This document shows, one piece after another, positions 38,433 through 45,517 of a stretch of 64,000 nt of DNA. Location: the NCBI GenBank assembly GCA_035555575.1, contig DATMGL010000008.1, forward strand, positions 78,292 through 142,291, written 5' to 3'. Position 1 is the stretch's first letter. Every line of letters begins with the position of its first letter. Source of the stretch: Sphingobium sp. GTDB taxonomy: Bacteria; Pseudomonadota; Alphaproteobacteria; Sphingomonadales; Sphingomonadaceae. Made by a program: the position numbers and the translations under genes. The notes beneath the pieces were generated by a model. It saw nothing but the letters and a program-made list of their open reading frames with translations. It searched no databases and had not been told where the DNA came from.

Positions 38433-40103
38433 TCAGTAAGCAGCGCTGAATGAAAGGAAGATGCGGCCGTCCCGGTCGCCCAGGGCGCCGACATCGCGGC
38501 CGATCGGCCTGGCATATTCCATCGACAGGCCGAAGCGTCCCGCAATCCCGACCCGCAGGCCCGCGCCGACCGATCGCAGACTGCTGCGCCTTGCCTCACC
38601 CGGCAGCGGACGGTTCTGATAAACCCGGCCACCCTCATAATAGACATAGGGCTCCACCGACCCCATGCCGCGCGCGGGGATGGTGTAGAAAAGCTCCGCC
38701 TTGCCGGCGAAACCCTTGTCGCCCGTTATTTCCGAGGGATCATAGGCGCGGCCATATTCGGTGCTGCCAAGGCCCATCTCCTCTGAAGCGAGCAGGCTGT
38801 TGCGCGTCCATTGCCCGGTCGCGCCGAGCAGGAGGCGCAGGCCGCGATGAATGGGTTGAACCCGCGTGATCTCGCCGTTCACTTTCGTGAAAACGCCCGA
38901 GGCGGTGGCGCGGGATTTGGCCGGGTCGCCCCCTGCCGTCGCACCGAGCAACCCAAGCCCCTGCGTGATGCTGCCCCGCACCGTGACCTGCCCGCCCAGA
39001 CGATCGGCATGATTGACCATGAGTCCCGCGTTCGCCGTGCGGATCTTGTCGTCAAAAACCGGGTCCAGAAGGATATTCCGCGAATTGCTATCCCGTGCCG
39101 TCCACGAAAACTGGCCAAGAATATTGGTCTCCCGGCTGCGCAGGAACGGATATTGCAGCCCGAAACCCCAGGTGAGGCTTTCGCCCTCGAGCGCAAGCAC
39201 GCGCAATTCATCGCCGGGCCGGGTCCGCGCATAGCTGGCGAACACGCTCGCACGCAGGCCGGAGCCGCCAATGGGCTGATCATAGGTTCCGGACACGAAG
39301 CCCAGTTCGCCCCCCTGATCGGGTGCGCCGACACCCGTTATGGCCAGCCGCCCTCCGGCACGGGCCAGATCGTTCAACACGATGCCGGCGTAAAACTGGG
39401 CCGGCCCCAGCCAGCGCGATCCGCGATTGTCGACCGCGACGAACGCTTCGACCGGCTTGCGCGCGACGACCAGGCTGAGGTCCGCCGCCCCCTCGACATC
39501 GGCAGAGGGCGTGAGCACGGCGCGGACGTCCGCCCCCTGAAGATCACGCGCCAGCAACAGCGCGCGCGCCAGATCCTTTCCGGATGTCGGCCGCTCCGCG
39601 CGAACCGGCGCAAGATAGGCTTCCAGATACGGGCGATAACCGCCGGGCTTTCCTTCGATCCGTGTCTGATCGATAAACCCTTCGACGATGTGGACCGTGG
39701 CGACGCCATTCTCGATGCGCTGCGGCGCGATGATCGCCCGCGAAAGCGCATAACCCCGGCGCCGATATTCGGCGGTCACCTGCTCGGCCAGCCGAAACAG
39801 GTCGGAGAGCGGCATGGCGCGGTTCAGATAGGGCCGGGCGAGCGCGTCCAGGGCATCCATCGGCACCACCGTCGCCCCGTCAAACCGCACCGCCGTCAAT
39901 GTGACCGGCAGCGCGCTCGCCGCAACGGCCTCCTGTGTCGGTAAATCCGGCACATCGAGCGGCGAAACGCTCGGCGCATCGGATTGCGCCCGAAAGCGCT
40001 CGTCGATCCGTCCGGGATCAACAGCCTGCTGCGCCTGTGCACCGACGCCCGAAAGCGCCAAAGCTGAAACAACGAAAAACCGCCCCCTGATCTTCATTCC
40101 CAC
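38433..40103 (-). CDS. ShlB/FhaC/HecB-family TpsB transporter
   Basis: Signal peptide, POTRA segment YRRRGYALSRA...IVEG, VDNRGS, loop 6 LGSTEYGRAY, C-terminal FLSFSAAY. Confidence 0.9.
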   Translation of the reverse strand: MGMKIRGRFFVVSALALSGVGAQAQQAVDPGRIDERFRAQSDAPSVSPLDVPDLPTQEAVAASALPVTLTAVRFDGATVVPMDALDALARPYLNRAMPLSDLFRLAEQVTAEYRRRGYALSRAIIAPQRIENGVATVHIVEGFIDQTRIEGKPGGYRPYLEAYLAPVRAERPTSGKDLARALLLARDLQGADVRAVLTPSADVEGAADLSLVVARKPVEAFVAVDNRGSRWLGPAQFYAGIVLNDLARAGGRLAITGVGAPDQGGELGFVSGTYDQPIGGSGLRASVFASYARTRPGDELRVLALEGESLTWGFGLQYPFLRSRETNILGQFSWTARDSNSRNILLDPVFDDKIRTANAGLMVNHADRLGGQVTVRGSITQGLGLLGATAGGDPAKSRATASGVFTKVNGEITRVQPIHRGLRLLLGATGQWTRNSLLASEEMGLGSTEYGRAYDPSEITGDKGFAGKAELFYTIPARGMGSVEPYVYYEGGRVYQNRPLPGEARRSSLRSVGAGLRVGIAGRFGLSMEYARPIGRDVGALGDRDGRIFLSFSAAY

Positions 40104-40172
40104 TCTCTGCTATTTGGTCAATACGCACCCGCGGCGCTCGAAAGCGCGGCGGCCGGCCATGCAATTTCTGTG

Positions 40173-41462
40173 TCAGGCGCGCCCGAGTCCGCCCGGGCCA
40201 TCGCCTGCGCGAAAATCACGCCTGCTCCCCGCCAGATCGCCAAGCGACACGGGCCGCACGTCCCGGTCACCGCCCCGATGATAGCTCCAGCTTCGCCAGG
40301 CGCTGGCCCGTCCAAGATGATATCCCTGCTGCCAGCAGTCGGCCTGAGAGGCCTGACGCGTTTGCAATTCGGCCGCCATCCGGCTTTGCGCTTCCGTCTC
40401 GACGCCCTCGACGATGACGACCGGTGCGATCGCGCCGGCCATGCCGACCAGATATTGCAGAAACTCGAAATTCTTCGGATCGGCAGCGGCGCGCCGCAGG
40501 AAGAAACCATCCAGCTTGATGATGTCGGGACTGATCGCCATGGCCCGGCGCACCGAGGCATGGCCGACGCCAAAATCATCGAGCGCGACACGGCAGCCAA
40601 GCGCGCGCAGTTCCCGCACAAACGCAAAGGCGCCAGCGTCGAGCGCCGCCGATTCCGTGATTTCCACAACGAGACGCTCCGCCATGCCGCGCGAGCGCTT
40701 CAGTCGCGCGAACAGCGAGGCCCACCAGATGTCGCACCGCGCGCTCTGGCCGGAAATATTCACGCCGAGCACCGCCGATGGATGATTTTCGAGTTCATCG
40801 AGCACCGCAGCCATGATCCGGCGGTCAAAAAGACGCATCAAGCCAAGCGCCTCCAGAGCAGGGATGAAGGCGGATGGCGGCACAAACCGGCCGTCCCGGT
40901 CAACCATGCGCGCCAGCGCCTCGCAATAGAGACTCCCCGAGCCCCCGGAGGCCGACCGGACAGGCTGCCAGTACATGTGCACCCGGCCATCGCTCATCGC
41001 CGCAAGCACATCGGCCGCAATGCTCATATTCTGCCGATATTGCCGGGACCACGCCCCCTCGTCACCCGCCGCCACATAAGCCGGCAGAGCCTGCCCCGCC
41101 ACGGCGCAGGACAGGGAAAGATGGAGGTCCACCCCCATCAGCTTCACCGGCTCAAGCGACAGCCGGTCCAGCAGGCTTTCGAGAATATCCTCGACGCCCG
41201 CAGAAGGTCGGTGTTCGAACGAGATCTCGACCAGTCCGGGACGGCGCACCCATGACAGGCACGCGCGCCCCCGCAATCGATCGAGGACCAGATCCAGACT
41301 GGCGATCGCCGCCTCGGCAGCGTCGGCCCCATATGCCGACAATATGTGGGAGATATTGTCTATGCGCAGGAGCGCATGCGCTTCAGCACCCTCGTGGGAG
41401 GAAGGATTTGATGGCGCCGCCCACAGATCTGCGTCGGTCCGTTCAACATCGATTGCGATCAT
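40173..41462 (-). CDS. EAL-domain c-di-GMP phosphodiesterase with degenerate N-terminal domain
   Basis: YWQP, EALAR, VNIS, VEITE, ALDDFGVG, IKLD, EGVET and QGY are all present. RBS GAGGAAG precedes ATG 41462. Confidence 0.88.
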   Translation of the reverse strand: MIAIDVERTDADLWAAPSNPSSHEGAEAHALLRIDNISHILSAYGADAAEAAIASLDLVLDRLRGRACLSWVRRPGLVEISFEHRPSAGVEDILESLLDRLSLEPVKLMGVDLHLSLSCAVAGQALPAYVAAGDEGAWSRQYRQNMSIAADVLAAMSDGRVHMYWQPVRSASGGSGSLYCEALARMVDRDGRFVPPSAFIPALEALGLMRLFDRRIMAAVLDELENHPSAVLGVNISGQSARCDIWWASLFARLKRSRGMAERLVVEITESAALDAGAFAFVRELRALGCRVALDDFGVGHASVRRAMAISPDIIKLDGFFLRRAAADPKNFEFLQYLVGMAGAIAPVVIVEGVETEAQSRMAAELQTRQASQADCWQQGYHLGRASAWRSWSYHRGGDRDVRPVSLGDLAGSRRDFRAGDGPGGLGRA

Positions 41463-41472
41463 CGACTTCCTC

Positions 41473-42438
41473 TCATGTCGGACGAACCACCCGCTCGAAC
41501 TTGAGACAAAATATCCAATTCTGTATCAAAGGGCAATAGCTGTTAATGGCGGTTCGTAAAAACCGTTTAATATCAGTTGGTTGTTGAGCGGCTAGATGAT
41601 CCGGTGCCGCATCGGACGTGGCAGGACTCGCCCCATCCTCACATGAGCTGGCGGCCTGCAGCGCCACAGGCGGCACGGGCCGCCCTGTTGGAAACCAGTC
41701 AGTTTGCTTGCGATGGGAGGATGACCGGCGGCTCTCCTTGCGCGAGCGGCGCCACATGCGCGAGGCGATCTCGCGCTCTTCCGGCCCCATCGCGCTGGTG
41801 TAGATTGCGGTTGTCTTGATATCGGCATGACCGAGCCATTTTTGAACAAGGGTCAGTGGAACATTGGACTGAATGGCTTTGACTCCGAAGCCATGTCGTA
41901 ACCCTTTTGGAGTCGCGTAGCTTCCGGTGATGCCTGCTTCGCCCATGACTTCACATATTCTGCGGTATCCGGTCATCCGTGACCATGGCCAAAGACGACC
42001 TGCATTGAAGTTTTCGGATTTAAACCATTTTTTGAGATAGTTAAGAAGCTGCTTAGGCAATGGGATTGACCTGAACATGGTCTTTCCGCGCTTTTTCAGG
42101 CTTTTAATGACTACATTCTCGGCTTTGAAGTCGATGCTATTCACGGTCATCGATAGAGCTTCAGAAATACGGCATCCGGTCACTGCCATCATCCAGCAAA
42201 AATTCCGGACAGATACTTTGAATTCCTGAGCCGCCGCCAGGAATGATTCCAACTCCGAGGACGTCAAATACTTCCTCTGACCCTCGCGATTATAGATGGT
42301 CCAGGGTGTGTCCGCACGCCTGGCTGCCGTTGCGCTGAGCTGAGACGGGGGGCTGTCTGCGGAGAGGCGCGCTGCCTGCGGCTCGGGCCCTGATACAGAA
42401 TTGGATAAAGTGTCACAGACTTTAAGCTTATTTTTCAT
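41473..42438 (-). CDS. FimB/FimE-like small tyrosine recombinase 1 (body lies inside the invertible segment)
   Basis: RKYLT, TGCRISEAL, LKK, PKGLRH, LGHADIKTTAIY. No core-binding domain. The ORF crosses both inverted repeats. Confidence 0.88.
   Translation of the reverse strand: MKNKLKVCDTLSNSVSGPEPQAARLSADSPPSQLSATAARRADTPWTIYNREGQRKYLTSSELESFLAAAQEFKVSVRNFCWMMAVTGCRISEALSMTVNSIDFKAENVVIKSLKKRGKTMFRSIPLPKQLLNYLKKWFKSENFNAGRLWPWSRMTGYRRICEVMGEAGITGSYATPKGLRHGFGVKAIQSNVPLTLVQKWLGHADIKTTAIYTSAMGPEEREIASRMWRRSRKESRRSSSHRKQTDWFPTGRPVPPVALQAASSCEDGASPATSDAAPDHLAAQQPTDIKRFLRTAINSYCPLIQNWIFCLKFERVVRPT
41501..41529 (+). repeat. Left recombination site (IRL), 11-7-11 core structure
   Basis: TTGAGACAAAA-TATCCAA-TTCTGTATCAA: the arms are 9/11 mutually inverted around a 7-bp asymmetric spacer. 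41512-41528 is the perfect reverse complement of 42391-42407. Confidence 0.85.
41512..42407. mobile_element. Putative invertible DNA segment (phase-variation switch), 896 bp
   Basis: Bounded by perfect 17-bp inverted repeats TATCCAATTCTGTATCA / TGATACAGAATTGGATA. Lies between a recombinase and the EAL-TpsB-TpsA operon. Confidence 0.8.
42390..42418 (-). repeat. Right recombination site (IRR)
   Basis: The minus strand reads CTGTGACACTT-TATCCAA-TTCTGTATCAG. Spacer and inner arm match IRL; the outer arm is diverged. Confidence 0.85.
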
Positions 42439-42893
42439 ACAGATAGCCCTTTAATCTGCGCTACATGGGGATGAACGTCGACTGCGCATTTCCCGATGTT
42501 CATCGGCGAAAGAGAATGCTCGGAACCCGTTATGGTTTCCTCACGACCGCTGGAACAGCTTGCACAAATATCGGAGCATGCTGAGCGGCCCACCGATTGA
42601 TGAACCATGGGGACTGACCGCAAGACGTTGCCGAGTCCCATGTTCATTGCTGCGGGTAGCAAGGGCGGATTGGCCAGGCGTGCTCAACTGTCTTTTGACA
42701 GGTTCACGACCGGGCCGGCGAGCCAGATGCGCGCTGGACCACGCCACATATCACGCAATAGCAGATCATGAACGGCGGCTGGAGCAAAGGCCACTTCCCG
42801 GTGCATGGGAGCACCGGGTGGGCAAGTCGCAAGGCGCACGCCGTCAGGTTTCCGGTGATGCGGAGGGCAGAGCCACCCCGCCGTTCCGCCGGA

Positions 42894-43712
42894 CTAGGCG
42901 ACCAGGCGCCTTGGCTTCAATTCATCTTCTGTGGAGAGTCCCTGTGAGCCACCGACAAAGCGGTCATCGAGCAGGGCGGCCAGCTTGAGCAACATCATGT
43001 CATCATATGCGACCCGATTGCCTTGCCGCTCCTCCAGCGCAAGGGCCGGCGTGTGTCGGATCGCGCCGGACCCGAGCGCCGCATGTTTGGCCCGCGTCGA
43101 TCGTGGGTTACGCGATCGGTTCATGCTGAATTTCCACGTGCGCGAGGCGAACTCCCGCTCTTCCGGGCCCATCGCGCTGGTGTAGATTGCGGTTGTCTTG
43201 ATATCGGCATGCCCCAACCAGCGCTGGATGAGGTTCAGGGGCACATTGGACTGGATCGCACAGACACCGAAGGCATGGCGCAGGCCTTTCGGTGTGGCGT
43301 GCGGACCAACAATCCCTGCACTGACCATCACCTCCCGGACGCGGCGATAGCCGGTCATCCGCGACCATGGCCACAGCCGCTCGCGAGGGAGCACGCCGAC
43401 ACTGAGCAAGGCTCTAAGCAGATTGAGCAATTCCGGTGGCAAGGGAATTGTTCTGAATATCTTCTTCCCGCGCTTCTTCAGACATTCGACAATGACATGC
43501 CCGGACTCAAAATCGATACTCTGCCTCGACAGGGCCAGCGCTTCTGAAATCCTGCACCCGGTTGTTGCCAGCATCCAGCAGAAACTGTGCACGGTTTCAC
43601 CCCGTTGCGCGGCTGCATATAAAAAAGAAACACGCTCTTTCGCAGTCAAATATTTACGCTGTCCCACTCCATCATACACGGACCCAAGCATCAATTCTCC
43701 ACCCCTCGGCAT
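42894..43712 (-). CDS. FimB/FimE-like small tyrosine recombinase 2 (outside the invertible segment)
   Basis: GQRKYLT, TGCRISEAL, LKKRG, PKGLRH, LGHADIKTTAIY. Paralog of recombinase 1. Likely start ATG 43691. Confidence 0.9.
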   Translation of the reverse strand: MPRGGELMLGSVYDGVGQRKYLTAKERVSFLYAAAQRGETVHSFCWMLATTGCRISEALALSRQSIDFESGHVIVECLKKRGKKIFRTIPLPPELLNLLRALLSVGVLPRERLWPWSRMTGYRRVREVMVSAGIVGPHATPKGLRHAFGVCAIQSNVPLNLIQRWLGHADIKTTAIYTSAMGPEEREFASRTWKFSMNRSRNPRSTRAKHAALGSGAIRHTPALALEERQGNRVAYDDMMLLKLAALLDDRFVGGSQGLSTEDELKPRRLVA

Positions 43713-44092
43713 GGTTAGTTCAGGGCTAACTGCGCTTATAAAGTTTACAAAAGTTTACATTATTTTACATTTGGGGTTTCGAAGCGGAGAGGCCGCACGG
43801 CCTTCATGTGCGCCATCGATGAATTGCATCTGATTTTGCTCGACTATCGGCCGGACTGTTCGTGGCCGGGGCGGAAGCCAGGATGGTCCCGGTCGCGTCA
43901 TAACCTTGCGCTGGACGGGGAGCCTCGATGGCTGCTGCTCGCAAAGGGATCGGGCGACCCGGCCGCCAAAGCTGCCGCACCCTGTTCAAACCCCCGATGG
44001 GGATGGCCCGCCGCGTTTCGCCCGGCGTCTCGCCGTGCCGCTCTATGCTGGCCGGCTGCAATGGGCCTTGCCGTTGCTGCGCAGACCTGGCG

Positions 44093-45517
44093 TTAAATCA
44101 CTTTCCCCGGATTGAGGATATTGTTGGGGTCCATCGTCGCCTTGAGCATCCGCATCAGCTTCAATTCCTCCGGCGTGCGCGAAAAGTGCAGAAACTCGCG
44201 CTTGATGCTGCCGATGCCATGCTCGGCGGTGATCGACCCGCCCCATTTGCCGACGGCTTCATAGACCAGTGCTTCCATCTCATGTTCGGGCATCGGATCG
44301 CGCGGCACCCGCGCTGACAGATGCAGGTTCGAATCCGCCAGATGGCCGAAGAACACCGTCACGCAATCCGGCCATTTTTCCAGCAGCAGATCACGCACAT
44401 AAGGAATGAAATCGCCGATCTTGCGTGTCGGCAGGCTCACATCGAAGGCGACTTGCGGCCAGTGCACCTTGTAGAACTCGCCTGGGCAATCACGGACCGC
44501 CCAGATCTCCTGCCGCTGCTTGTCGGACTGGGCGATCACCGCATCCTGCACCAGCCCGGATTCGATCATGCCGCCCAGCACTTCCTCAAAACGCTCCGGG
44601 TCGCGCCCGGGGTCCGTGCCGAGGATCTCGATCAGCGCATAAACGTTATAACCATGCGCCAGCGGCGGCTGACGGCCAAGCGCCGTGGTCCCGATATGGT
44701 AGAAATCCGGCCACATCACCTCAAAGGCCGAGAGCGTGCTGCTGAAGGCGGAATTGCACTGCCTGAGCAATTCGAGCGTCGCGGCATAGTCCTCGATCGC
44801 GACCACCGCCGTGCAGGCGCTCCTTGGCTTGGGGAACAGGCGCAGCACCAGCCGGGTGATGACGCCGAGCGTCCCTTCGCTGCCGATGAAGAGGTGCTTC
44901 AGATCATAGCCGGCATTATTCTTGATCATCACATTGAGCGAACTGATGATGGTGCCATCCGCCAGCACGGCCTCGACGCCCAGAATGAGGTCGCGCATCA
45001 TGCCGTAGCGCAACACCCGGTTCCCGCCGGCATTGGTCGCGGCATTCCCGCCGACCTGCGCGGTGCCGCGGCCGCCAAGATCAAGCGGGAAGAGGAAGCC
45101 CGCATCGTCGGCCGCGACCTGCACCGTCTCCAGCACTGTGCCGGCCAGCACGGTCATCGTGCGCCCGGCTTCATCCAGTTCCTCGATGCCGCGCATCCGC
45201 TCCATGGAGAGCAGCACGCACGGGCGGTCGGCCAGGCCGCCGGCGCACAGGCTGGTGAGGCCGCCCTGCGGCACGACCGGATAACGCGCCTCGTTGCAGA
45301 TCGCCATGATACGCGAGACCTGCGCGGTCGTGCGCGGATAGGCGATACCCGGCAGCGCAATCCCCGCGGGCATGACGTTCGTGAAGTCGGTGCTATGCCG
45401 CGCAAAATCCGCTTCCGAGGCATCCTTGATGATGTCCGGCCCGAGTTCGGCCTTGAGACGGGCGATCACCGCCGCGCCTTTGCCTGCATCCTGCGAGCCC
45501 TCGATAATCGCTGTCAT
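44093..45517 (-). CDS. FAD-binding oxidoreductase (GlcD/D-2-hydroxyacid dehydrogenase family)
   Basis: PQGGLTSL, GGNAATNAGG, GSEGTLG, FGHLADSNLH, TAEHGIG, DPNNILNPGK. Confidence 0.9.
   Translation of the reverse strand: MTAIIEGSQDAGKGAAVIARLKAELGPDIIKDASEADFARHSTDFTNVMPAGIALPGIAYPRTTAQVSRIMAICNEARYPVVPQGGLTSLCAGGLADRPCVLLSMERMRGIEELDEAGRTMTVLAGTVLETVQVAADDAGFLFPLDLGGRGTAQVGGNAATNAGGNRVLRYGMMRDLILGVEAVLADGTIISSLNVMIKNNAGYDLKHLFIGSEGTLGVITRLVLRLFPKPRSACTAVVAIEDYAATLELLRQCNSAFSSTLSAFEVMWPDFYHIGTTALGRQPPLAHGYNVYALIEILGTDPGRDPERFEEVLGGMIESGLVQDAVIAQSDKQRQEIWAVRDCPGEFYKVHWPQVAFDVSLPTRKIGDFIPYVRDLLLEKWPDCVTVFFGHLADSNLHLSARVPRDPMPEHEMEALVYEAVGKWGGSITAEHGIGSIKREFLHFSRTPEELKLMRMLKATMDPNNILNPGKVI

Follow-up and report, generated by a model that had tools for sequence, protein, structure and literature searches.

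Introduction

In the fimS system of Escherichia coli, with FimB and FimE, and in the mrp system of Proteus with its recombinase MrpI, small single-domain tyrosine recombinases invert a promoter segment that lies before a surface-adhesin operon. A related arrangement is described here for an alphaproteobacterium, on a 64-kb stretch of a Sphingobium genome (the window, which is the whole stretch of DNA analysed and belongs to contig 8 of a 3.4-Mb, 32-contig assembly). At its centre is an 896-bp segment bounded by inverted core sites and containing a tyrosine recombinase gene; it inverts in natural soil populations directly before a gene for an EAL-domain protein, probably a cyclic di-GMP (c-di-GMP) phosphodiesterase, behind which lie the two genes of a two-partner secretion system, TpsB and TpsA. 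The whole locus is best explained, with a probability of roughly three in four, as an active site-specific inversion switch with an outward-facing promoter, the window showing the orientation that would be ON for EAL-TpsB-TpsA.

Like fimS, the locus combines short inverted repeats with two paralogous recombinases, one of which may be expressed in an orientation-dependent manner. The fimS element spans 314 bp, contains no gene and leaves both recombinase genes outside, whereas here one recombinase gene lies within the 896 bp; furthermore, the first gene that would be regulated encodes an EAL phosphodiesterase, the host is an alphaproteobacterium, and the recombinases themselves score far from the curated Fim-type families, as detailed below. 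The specificity of FimE has been summarised elsewhere (PMC6083910), together with ipuS of uropathogenic Escherichia coli (IpuA/IpuB; ipuR-upaE), where one repeat lies in recombinase coding sequence and inversion alters the C-terminus of ipuA, trimming 11 codons (PMC6083910). The present locus resembles ipuS in having a repeat in recombinase coding sequence and, as proposed below, in a promoter inside the element and a secreted type V adhesin as target; ipuS, in contrast, is only 260 bp long, has 7-bp repeats and overlaps just the last 11 ipuA codons, whereas the entire catalytic domain lies within the present segment and the open reading frame (ORF) crosses a site at either end.

Close in its proposed layout is also the H segment of Salmonella (hin, hixL/hixR and the fljBA promoter), a segment of about 1 kb with an invertase gene and an outward promoter for the adjacent operon, although Hin belongs to the serine recombinases and depends on Fis and an enhancer, and the enzyme here is a tyrosine recombinase with 11-7-11 core sites. 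The placement of a recombinase within its own segment has been cited as occasional (PMC5903667). In Clostridioides difficile, switches inverted by RecV lie directly upstream of the c-di-GMP phosphodiesterase genes pdcB and pdcC and make c-di-GMP and surface phenotypes phase-variable (PMC9286219); the shared theme is a tyrosine-recombinase switch before a phosphodiesterase gene. That host is a firmicute, in which one distant master recombinase serves many small switches; these are not known to contain a recombinase gene, nor to have an adhesin operon joined to the phosphodiesterase gene. A read-based survey of inversions found none of four alphaproteobacterial samples positive (PMC5903667), full-text literature searches returned nothing linking sphingomonads to invertons or phase variation, and the switch family, its taxon and a design that places the recombinase inside appear undescribed.

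Inversion of the segment

Between positions 39000 and 45000 a repeat finder returned a single standout inverted pair (41502-41528 and 42391-42417; 27 nt, 85% complementary), which contains a perfect 17-bp core, TATCCAATTCTGTATCA, lying at 41512-41528 and, in reverse complement, at 42391-42407. At a tolerance of up to three mismatches, the 17-mer occurs exactly twice in the 64 kb, against 0.05 expected, and two matches were reached in none of 100 shuffles. The perfect 17-bp repeats claimed in the original prediction are confirmed. Each repeat forms part of an 11-7-11 site (Table 1): the left site, IRL, has arms that form a dyad matching at 9 of 11 positions, as read from the sequence, and the right site, IRR, reads CTGTGACACTT / TATCCAA / TTCTGTATCAG on the other strand. 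Read across its site, the recombinase-distal interior is …TTGCCCTT-TGATACAG…. The genome holds one full copy of the segment; the guanine-plus-cytosine (GC) content of 41450-43800 is 45-57%, compared with a background of about 65%, and the minus strand carries every nearby gene, from TpsA, TpsB and the EAL gene to the inner and outer recombinases.

Inversion itself is documented by assembled contigs from seven public soil-metagenome DNA runs (X1 and X2 from sample S1; X3 and X4 from S2; X5 and X6 from S3; X7 from S4), which were compared with positions 40900-43100. The contigs of X1 and X2 are long and collinear with the window over both repeats. In X3, X5, X6 and X7, contigs follow the left flank as far as 41511, where they pass to the opposite strand at 42407 and descend from there, and reciprocal contigs join 42391 to 41529; at these inverted joints 17 letters fit both sides, and there is no mismatch to the window over up to 255 nt or more per side. 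The assembly graph of X4 breaks at the repeats, and both inverted junctions are present there together with the reference junction at the right repeat, the last as a 43-nt contig (42378-42420). By sample, the segment is oriented once as in the window and three times inverted, with one run containing both. Because the 17-bp repeat is shorter than the 31-letter word of the assembler, the inverted joints were carried by real reads; given reciprocal joints at 100% identity, the segment therefore occurs both ways in nature, side by side in at least one library. The 896-bp segment thus inverts in natural soil populations, with exchange inside the 17-bp core. Mapping sequence data to both orientations, a check proposed with the original prediction, accordingly gave a positive answer, in the form of contigs of both kinds with the crossover within the core.

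Isolate assemblies show signs of the same coexistence. In the assembly of Sphingobium faniae CGMCC 1.7749, an identical 902-bp segment is present on two contigs (L045 and L046) that split at the first base of the proximal core, one leading into the EAL flank and the other into the opposite flank; each terminates with the last base of the distal core. Stand-alone contigs of 844, 844 and 932 bp (L058, L072 and L061, respectively), bounded by the cores, occur in three further isolate assemblies, and the isolate drafts that break exactly at the cores are those of Sphingobium ummariense RL-3, Sphingobium sp. C100, Sphingomonas azotifigens NBRC 15497 and the S. faniae strain. Such core-bounded contigs are what an assembler is expected to produce from a culture of mixed orientation, and are signs of one. 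Two hallmarks of an inverton are present: the coexistence of two orientations, seen in the metagenome contigs, within run X4 and in the S. faniae isolate, and inverted repeats with a recombinase gene nearby.

A family of switches in Sphingomonadales

Homologues were found by protein search in 9 of 60 related genomes, and a pattern scan over the genomes of 185,579 species led to 80 loci being kept, mostly from Sphingomonas, Sphingobium, Novosphingobium, Sphingosinicella and Tsuneonella, with outliers in other Alphaproteobacteria; Sphingomonas elodea carries one such switch. Culturable carriers include S. elodea ATCC 31461 and Sphingosinicella microcystinivorans DSM 19791, the latter again with EAL and TpsB genes. 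More than 40 loci have inverted repeats 700-980 bp apart that enclose the recombinase gene, and in about 45 an EAL gene directly adjoins one repeat, in both relative orientations. One locus is even represented in opposite states, by L033 on the one hand and L034 and L039 on the other, which share EAL flank and interior. The comparison of orientation across related genomes, also suggested at the outset, therefore shows homologous loci that keep the inverted repeats and occur in both orientations.

The family also defines the site. With the register set by an alignment of all loci, the seven spacer positions showed no difference between partner sites in 22 loci, whereas arm positions, including those next to the spacer, were mismatched between partners in up to 17 of the 22, and the predicted 11-7-11 architecture holds in this respect. 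Thirteen spacer forms occur across the family (for example TATCCAA, TAGCCAA, TAACCAA, TAACTAG and TGCCTAT) and covary between partner sites; unlike the 22-locus comparison, this count is not independent, since the distal site was found via the exact spacer. The arms are imperfectly inverted, with the consensus TG(A/T)(G/T)AC. Judged from these alignments, identity limited to an asymmetric 7-bp overlap between imperfect inverted arms is the signature of a tyrosine-recombinase core site, for which inverted arms around an overlap of 6-8 bp, identical in the two partners, are expected and were found.

Across the family, the EAL gene is the constant partner of the switch, while the surface-related operons behind it vary. 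TpsB/TpsA pairs follow in the Sphingosinicella loci as well as in the window, L021 and L044; a CsgG-family lipoprotein, accompanied by a Ser/Asn-rich secreted protein, in L042 (47-2092) and L033 (1127-1657); an SCPU (Csu-type) pilin in L063 (1950-2498); and a Bac_transf exopolysaccharide priming glycosyltransferase in L036 (391-1818) and L070 (6699-8123), with L083 probably of the same type from its sequence similarity to L036. Apart from these loci, distant homologues of the same order, at 40-45% identity, have perfect inverted repeats of 17-19 bp beside the recombinase gene rather than around it, over spans of 158-1543 bp, and these look like classical promoter-only switches.

The two recombinases

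The original prediction also placed two recombinases at the switch, one inside (here recA) and one outside (recB), and both ORFs indeed encode a Phage_integrase domain and are paralogous, with 64% identity over the domain. Their PF00589 scores of 89 and 80.9 bits, respectively, against a cut-off of 27.1, identify both as tyrosine-recombinase domains, which span residues 56-215 of recA (catalytic domain at about 41794-42273) and 22-179 of recB. Eight family sequences share invariant columns at the Arg, Lys, Arg-His, His and Tyr positions of the catalytic set, namely R44 (TGCRISEAL), K69/K70, R135-H136 (GLRHGF), H158 and Y167 (LGHADIKTTAIY). The His-II position is presumably occupied by Lys (PKGLRH), an assignment made by eye against XerD and offered as a lead only. 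The start codon of most relatives precedes the domain by 3-6 codons, in an ORF of about 205-230 aa, and the proteins consist of the catalytic domain only, without an N-terminal core-binding domain.

The nearest solved structures are XerC-like, XerD, XerA and XerH, and models of XerA and XerD outscore those of the invertase families. On the curated invertase models NF007370 and NF007371, recA reaches 60.7 and 44.3 bits and recB 31.4 and 51.2, far under the respective cut-offs of 221 and 222. Of the label "FimB/FimE-like" that had been attached to the pair, the size and the logic of the Fim invertases stand, while membership of the Fim family does not. In a tree, the outer recombinases fall inside the inner-type clade and have more than one origin, so that on phylogenetic grounds recB is a recent duplicate of the in-switch type; its derivation from an ancient FimB-like lineage is ruled out by the same nesting. 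A second, decayed switch around recB is likewise ruled out, as no core-like site matching at 14 or more of 19 positions exists in 42400-44100.

The reading frame of the inner gene is tied to the orientation of the segment. Most relatives start the recombinase 75-85 nt inside the proximal repeat, where the window has ACA at the corresponding codon; a codon walk found the ATG at 42438-42436, outside IRR, to be the sole in-frame ATG, GTG or TTG before the recA domain. At the other end, the recA frame stops beyond IRL, at 41473-41475, which leaves 11 nt to the EAL ATG. In the inverted state, TGA stands just before the core in the recA frame, no ATG or GTG precedes the domain, and the flank ATG opens an ORF of 21 codons only. 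Because its sole start codon is outside the segment, the inner recombinase would be translatable only in the window orientation; from these frames, recB would be able to act in either state, and the inner enzyme would be made in one. Similarly, L022 has its start codon outside the segment and possesses a second, outer recombinase, and L032, also with an outer recombinase, shows no Met at the usual start position when aligned to recA.

Several further observations concern these genes and their flanks. An AT-rich non-EAL flank with an ATG (often ATGAAAAATAA, with a Shine-Dalgarno-like stretch before it) recurs in L034, L036, L038, L039, L045, L060 and L071. With the proximal end next to it, this flank supplies an ATG in the recombinase frame in L022, L034, S. 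faniae and the window, which yields an N-terminally extended recombinase isoform in one orientation only; the extension of recA is 45 aa. At the opposite end, the window (41473-41770) and 18 of 41 related loci have a recombinase frame that continues without a stop for about 100 codons of low conservation, as far as the distal repeat or through it. This is too frequent for chance at this GC content, and such frames end in a repeat-encoded YC(P)LIQ(N/F)W tail (seen in the distal parts of L033-L075).

Upstream of recB, an AT-rich stretch at 43738-43775 contains three closely spaced TTTACA repeats (AAGTTTACAAAAGTTTACATTATTTTACATTT), which may be a promoter or operator of that gene. In addition, the two recombinase genes, otherwise at about 69% DNA identity, have in common a 44-nt exact direct repeat (41786-41829 and 43168-43211), which suggests recent gene conversion; it splits the assembly graphs in all runs, and in the inverted state its copies become inverted repeats 1.3 kb apart.

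Proposed promoter and polarity of the switch

At all loci examined, about 38-52 nt separate the outer arm from the EAL ATG, which is preceded by a small hairpin and a Shine-Dalgarno sequence. A full promoter does not fit this constant flank, and the EAL promoter would therefore overlap the switch. A candidate is found at the recombinase-distal end, where TTG (mostly TTGC) stands 3-4 nt from the distal inner arm in 40 of 40 loci, as compared with 0 of 40 at the equivalent proximal position. The explanation of TTGC as a mere Cys codon of the recombinase tail is ruled out: since it is retained in loci whose recombinase ORF stops about 120 nt earlier, it is a signal in the DNA and not a codon. Its window form, TTGCCC, would serve as the −35 box. 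The spacing of 17 from this box to a TAnnnn hexamer is conserved across loci, and in the window the hexamer, TATTTT, would be a hybrid −10 element created by the junction itself. Facing the EAL gene, the window orientation reads …TTGCCC-N17-TATTTT-GTCTCAA…, and the inverted one …TCGGGC-N17-TATTTT…. An AT-rich promoter-like stretch had been predicted just inside IRL; an AT-richer stretch is present, and yet the motif conserved in the family is TTGCCC (41536-41531) and not the TTAA-N7-TTAC originally singled out.

Additional evidence comes from RNA. Two soil metatranscriptomes contain contigs at 41212-41482 and 41220-41437 with depths of about 1185 and 1204, against a depth of 2-4 (about 300-fold lower) over the rest of the EAL gene and zero over the switch. 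With zero RNA over the switch, transcription of the EAL gene is not read-through from the recombinase gene; if sense, the abundant RNA starts no more than about 30 nt from the site. On the minus strand its stretch folds better than shuffles (z of −2.8), on the plus strand it does not (−0.3), and folding of 41200-41505 predicts a long-range helix between about 41500-41476 and about 41236-41213 that brackets the RNA, extending slightly past its mapped 5′ end. Rfam has no family in 40000-44200 (E ≤ 1), nor in the whole window at gathering scores, so that the RNA is not a known riboswitch or small RNA; possible identities are a stable product of processing, an attenuated leader and a small RNA. 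A rule-based scan of 41200-44200 found no terminator-like sites.

From the absence of room for a promoter in the constant flank, the one-ended −35-like box and the RNA starting at the site, we infer promoter control of the EAL/TPS operon, with the window orientation as ON and the inverted one as OFF. According to this model, the inner recombinase, and in this genome probably also recB, would cleave and exchange strands within TATCCAA. The outward promoter at the recombinase-distal end, with its −35 inside the segment and its −10 formed at the flank junction, would in the window orientation face the EAL-TpsB-TpsA operon across some 40 nt of constant DNA, and phosphodiesterase and adhesin would be made together. 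Inversion would bring GC-rich sequence without a −35 box to the EAL gene and aim the promoter into the other flank. With the inner recombinase made only in the ON orientation and recB always expressible, the predicted outcome is heritable, reversible heterogeneity in c-di-GMP level and surface adhesion.

Several points weigh against this interpretation. The rule-based scan picked a different promoter as its only one on the minus strand (TTAACA-17-CAGAAT, 41546-41518), a candidate that is rejected here as not conserved in relatives. The −10 proposed on the EAL side often lacks the final T elsewhere (TAGACC, TATTCC), and the non-EAL flank usually offers TAnnnT, so that the promoter facing away from EAL may, by its hexamers, be as strong or stronger. 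Of 30 loci whose sites are mapped and which adjoin an EAL gene, 6 have recombinase and EAL gene co-directional, as in the window, and 24 have them divergent; this excess of the state read as OFF fits the proposed polarity without proving it. The abundant RNA begins with 41482, some 18 nt downstream of where transcription is predicted to start; only folding points to its strand, and its depth is not tied to either orientation of the switch. The metagenome evidence consists of contigs and therefore speaks for the presence of junctions rather than for orientation ratios, and coexisting strains are formally a possible source of both orientations in the metagenomes.

Alternative explanations

The alternative that retains most of its ground accepts the switch as real and has the EAL gene controlled differently or with the opposite polarity: either a core promoter in constant DNA, using the reverse complement of the spacer, TTGGATA, as −35 together with the flank, is modulated by variable upstream DNA, recombinase binding or read-through, or the divergent state is ON. 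The constant TTGGATA-N11-GTTCGAGC does resemble TTGGTAA-N10-GTTAGAGC upstream of the recombinase gene in six relatives (the corresponding motif, TTGNTAA-N10-GYTAGAGC, was recovered by pattern search in 6 of 40 loci and is given little weight), and the RNA 5′ end suits a start few bases past GTTCGAGC better than one set by the hybrid promoter, while the dominance of the divergent state in genomes would suit the reversed polarity. Yet other loci have no conserved GTTCGAGC at this position, the −35-like element is never proximal and the distal TTG is invariant, and so strictly one-ended a motif is hard to explain if the variable DNA is irrelevant. Such control is conceivable, but rather improbable.

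It is unlikely that inversion mainly serves the recombinase gene, by setting its start or C-terminus, or the other flank, by driving or antisense-silencing it, so that the link to the EAL gene would be positional only. The external start codon in the window and L022 and the frames that run into or through the distal repeat would accord with a function for the recombinase itself, were it not that most relatives start it some 80 nt inside the segment. Likewise, the conserved ATG-led flank that reads into the switch, and the better −10 on that side, could indicate a role for the non-EAL flank, whose gene content is nevertheless not conserved and mostly convergent; nor would a purely positional link account for an EAL gene with a 40-50-nt leader adjoining the site in so many loci.

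Far less probable still is a small mobile element, of which the repeats would be the terminal inverted repeats and the two orientations independent insertions. The low-GC island, the recombinase between inverted repeats and the patchy distribution among relatives are compatible with such an origin, but the segment is single-copy, the two orientations are found at one and the same site, between identical flanks and without mismatches, within single samples and within one isolate culture, the outer arms, EAL leader and AT-rich ATG flank are conserved parts of the unit, and no target duplications were seen; as a single full copy that always lies by an EAL gene between conserved flanks, it was rejected as an insertion sequence or transposon. 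That the opposite-strand joints are assembly artefacts at the repeat is hardly credible, even though contigs were used and not raw reads, as a repeat below the assembler's word can be crossed only by real reads and both reciprocal junctions, with more than 250 nt per side, recur in four independent runs.

The EAL gene, its operon and other features

The EAL protein shows the motifs EAL, EITE, DDFG(V)G, KLD and EGVE in its translation, in line with an EAL phosphodiesterase, and judging by these residues it is probably an active c-di-GMP phosphodiesterase. Codon-position GC indicates coding from codon 1, and the pattern GC1 > GC2 < GC3 rules out that codons 1-84 are a non-coding leader. Its residues 1-150 have no match in Pfam and show little conservation among the EAL proteins of the family; an LRIDN..I...YG stretch in this region, noticed by eye only, is a hint of a degenerate GGDEF-like fold. 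Behind it, a TpsA with a TPS domain and a TpsB with POTRA and ShlB barrel together constitute a two-partner secretion (type Vb) system. In a listing of the EAL flanks of 29 loci, related loci have hairpins of other sequence at the position of the leader hairpin. The coordinates of all features are compiled in Table 1.

Table 1. Positions of the features discussed, in window coordinates unless a related locus is named.
Feature	Position	Strand	Remarks
IRL, left core site	41501-41529	no strand	TTGAGACAAAA 41501-41511 outer arm; TATCCAA 41512-41518 spacer; TTCTGTATCAA 41519-41529 inner arm
IRR, right core site, inverted relative to IRL	42390-42418	no strand	inner arm 42390-42400; spacer TTGGATA 42401-42407; outer arm 42408-42418
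Invertible segment, 896 bp	41512-42407	no strand	single-copy in genome; both orientations in soil metagenome contigs
recA, inner tyrosine recombinase ORF, 321 aa	41473-42438	minus	PF00589 Phage_integrase 4.1e-25; spans whole segment
recB, outer paralogous tyrosine recombinase, 272 aa	42894-43712	minus	Pfam 1.3e-22; own start codon
Candidate −35 box TTGCCC	41531-41536	minus	outward-facing, recombinase-distal end; TTG position fixed in family
Candidate −10 hexamer TATTTT	41508-41513	minus	17 nt past −35; last 2 spacer bases and 4 EAL-side outer-arm bases
AT-rich non-EAL flank	42419-42450	minus	conserved ATGAAAAATAA start reading into the switch
5′ untranslated region hairpin CGAGC-GGGTG-GTTCG	41483-41497	minus	between outer arm and EAL Shine-Dalgarno; read by eye
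Abundant RNA, ~270 nt	41212-41482	minus (inferred from folding)	covers EAL start and first ~83 codons
EAL-domain protein, 429 aa	40173-41462	minus	first gene behind switch; Pfam EAL 1.5e-46, 159 bits
EAL protein N-terminal region, residues 1-150	40173-41020 (as listed)	minus	without Pfam match
TpsB transporter	38433-40103	minus	POTRA_2 and ShlB
TpsA exoprotein, 2495 aa	30896-38383	minus	N-terminal TPS secretion domain and beta-helix
Inverted repeats beside the recombinase gene, distant homologues	L026 7472-8062; L027 5079-6080; L029 7341-7498; L030 7264-7421; L031 7349-8891		inverted repeats

Significance and outlook

A broader and more tentative proposal, which is possible but doubtful as a whole, regards the switch as a portable, self-contained cassette, with the recombinase inside, a promoter split by the crossover and an EAL gene with a hairpin leader, that would have been recruited repeatedly before different surface operons of Sphingomonadales. 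Each ON/OFF decision at the surface would then be tied to a change in c-di-GMP, in the two-recombinase form found here translation of the inner enzyme in the ON state only would bias the switch back to OFF, and the 270-nt RNA would act as a regulatory RNA of the ON state and not stem from decay. If true, this single device would span two-partner adhesins, CsgG/curli-like systems, SCPU pili and exopolysaccharide priming transferases.

Programmed inversion has been studied thoroughly in gut and pathogenic Gammaproteobacteria, Bacteroidetes and Clostridia, and here a family of switches is seen flipping in soil. The locus provides a compact inversion module that consists of a single tyrosine recombinase gene and a defined 29-bp site, of which 13 spacer variants occur naturally, as well as a case of a recombinase gene whose own start and end cross its recombination sites. 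Sphingomonadales matter for biodegradation, plant association and the production of sphingan gums, and the switch, which would tie c-di-GMP turnover to adhesin, pilus and exopolysaccharide genes, offers a simple explanation for colony and biofilm heterogeneity in sphingomonads.

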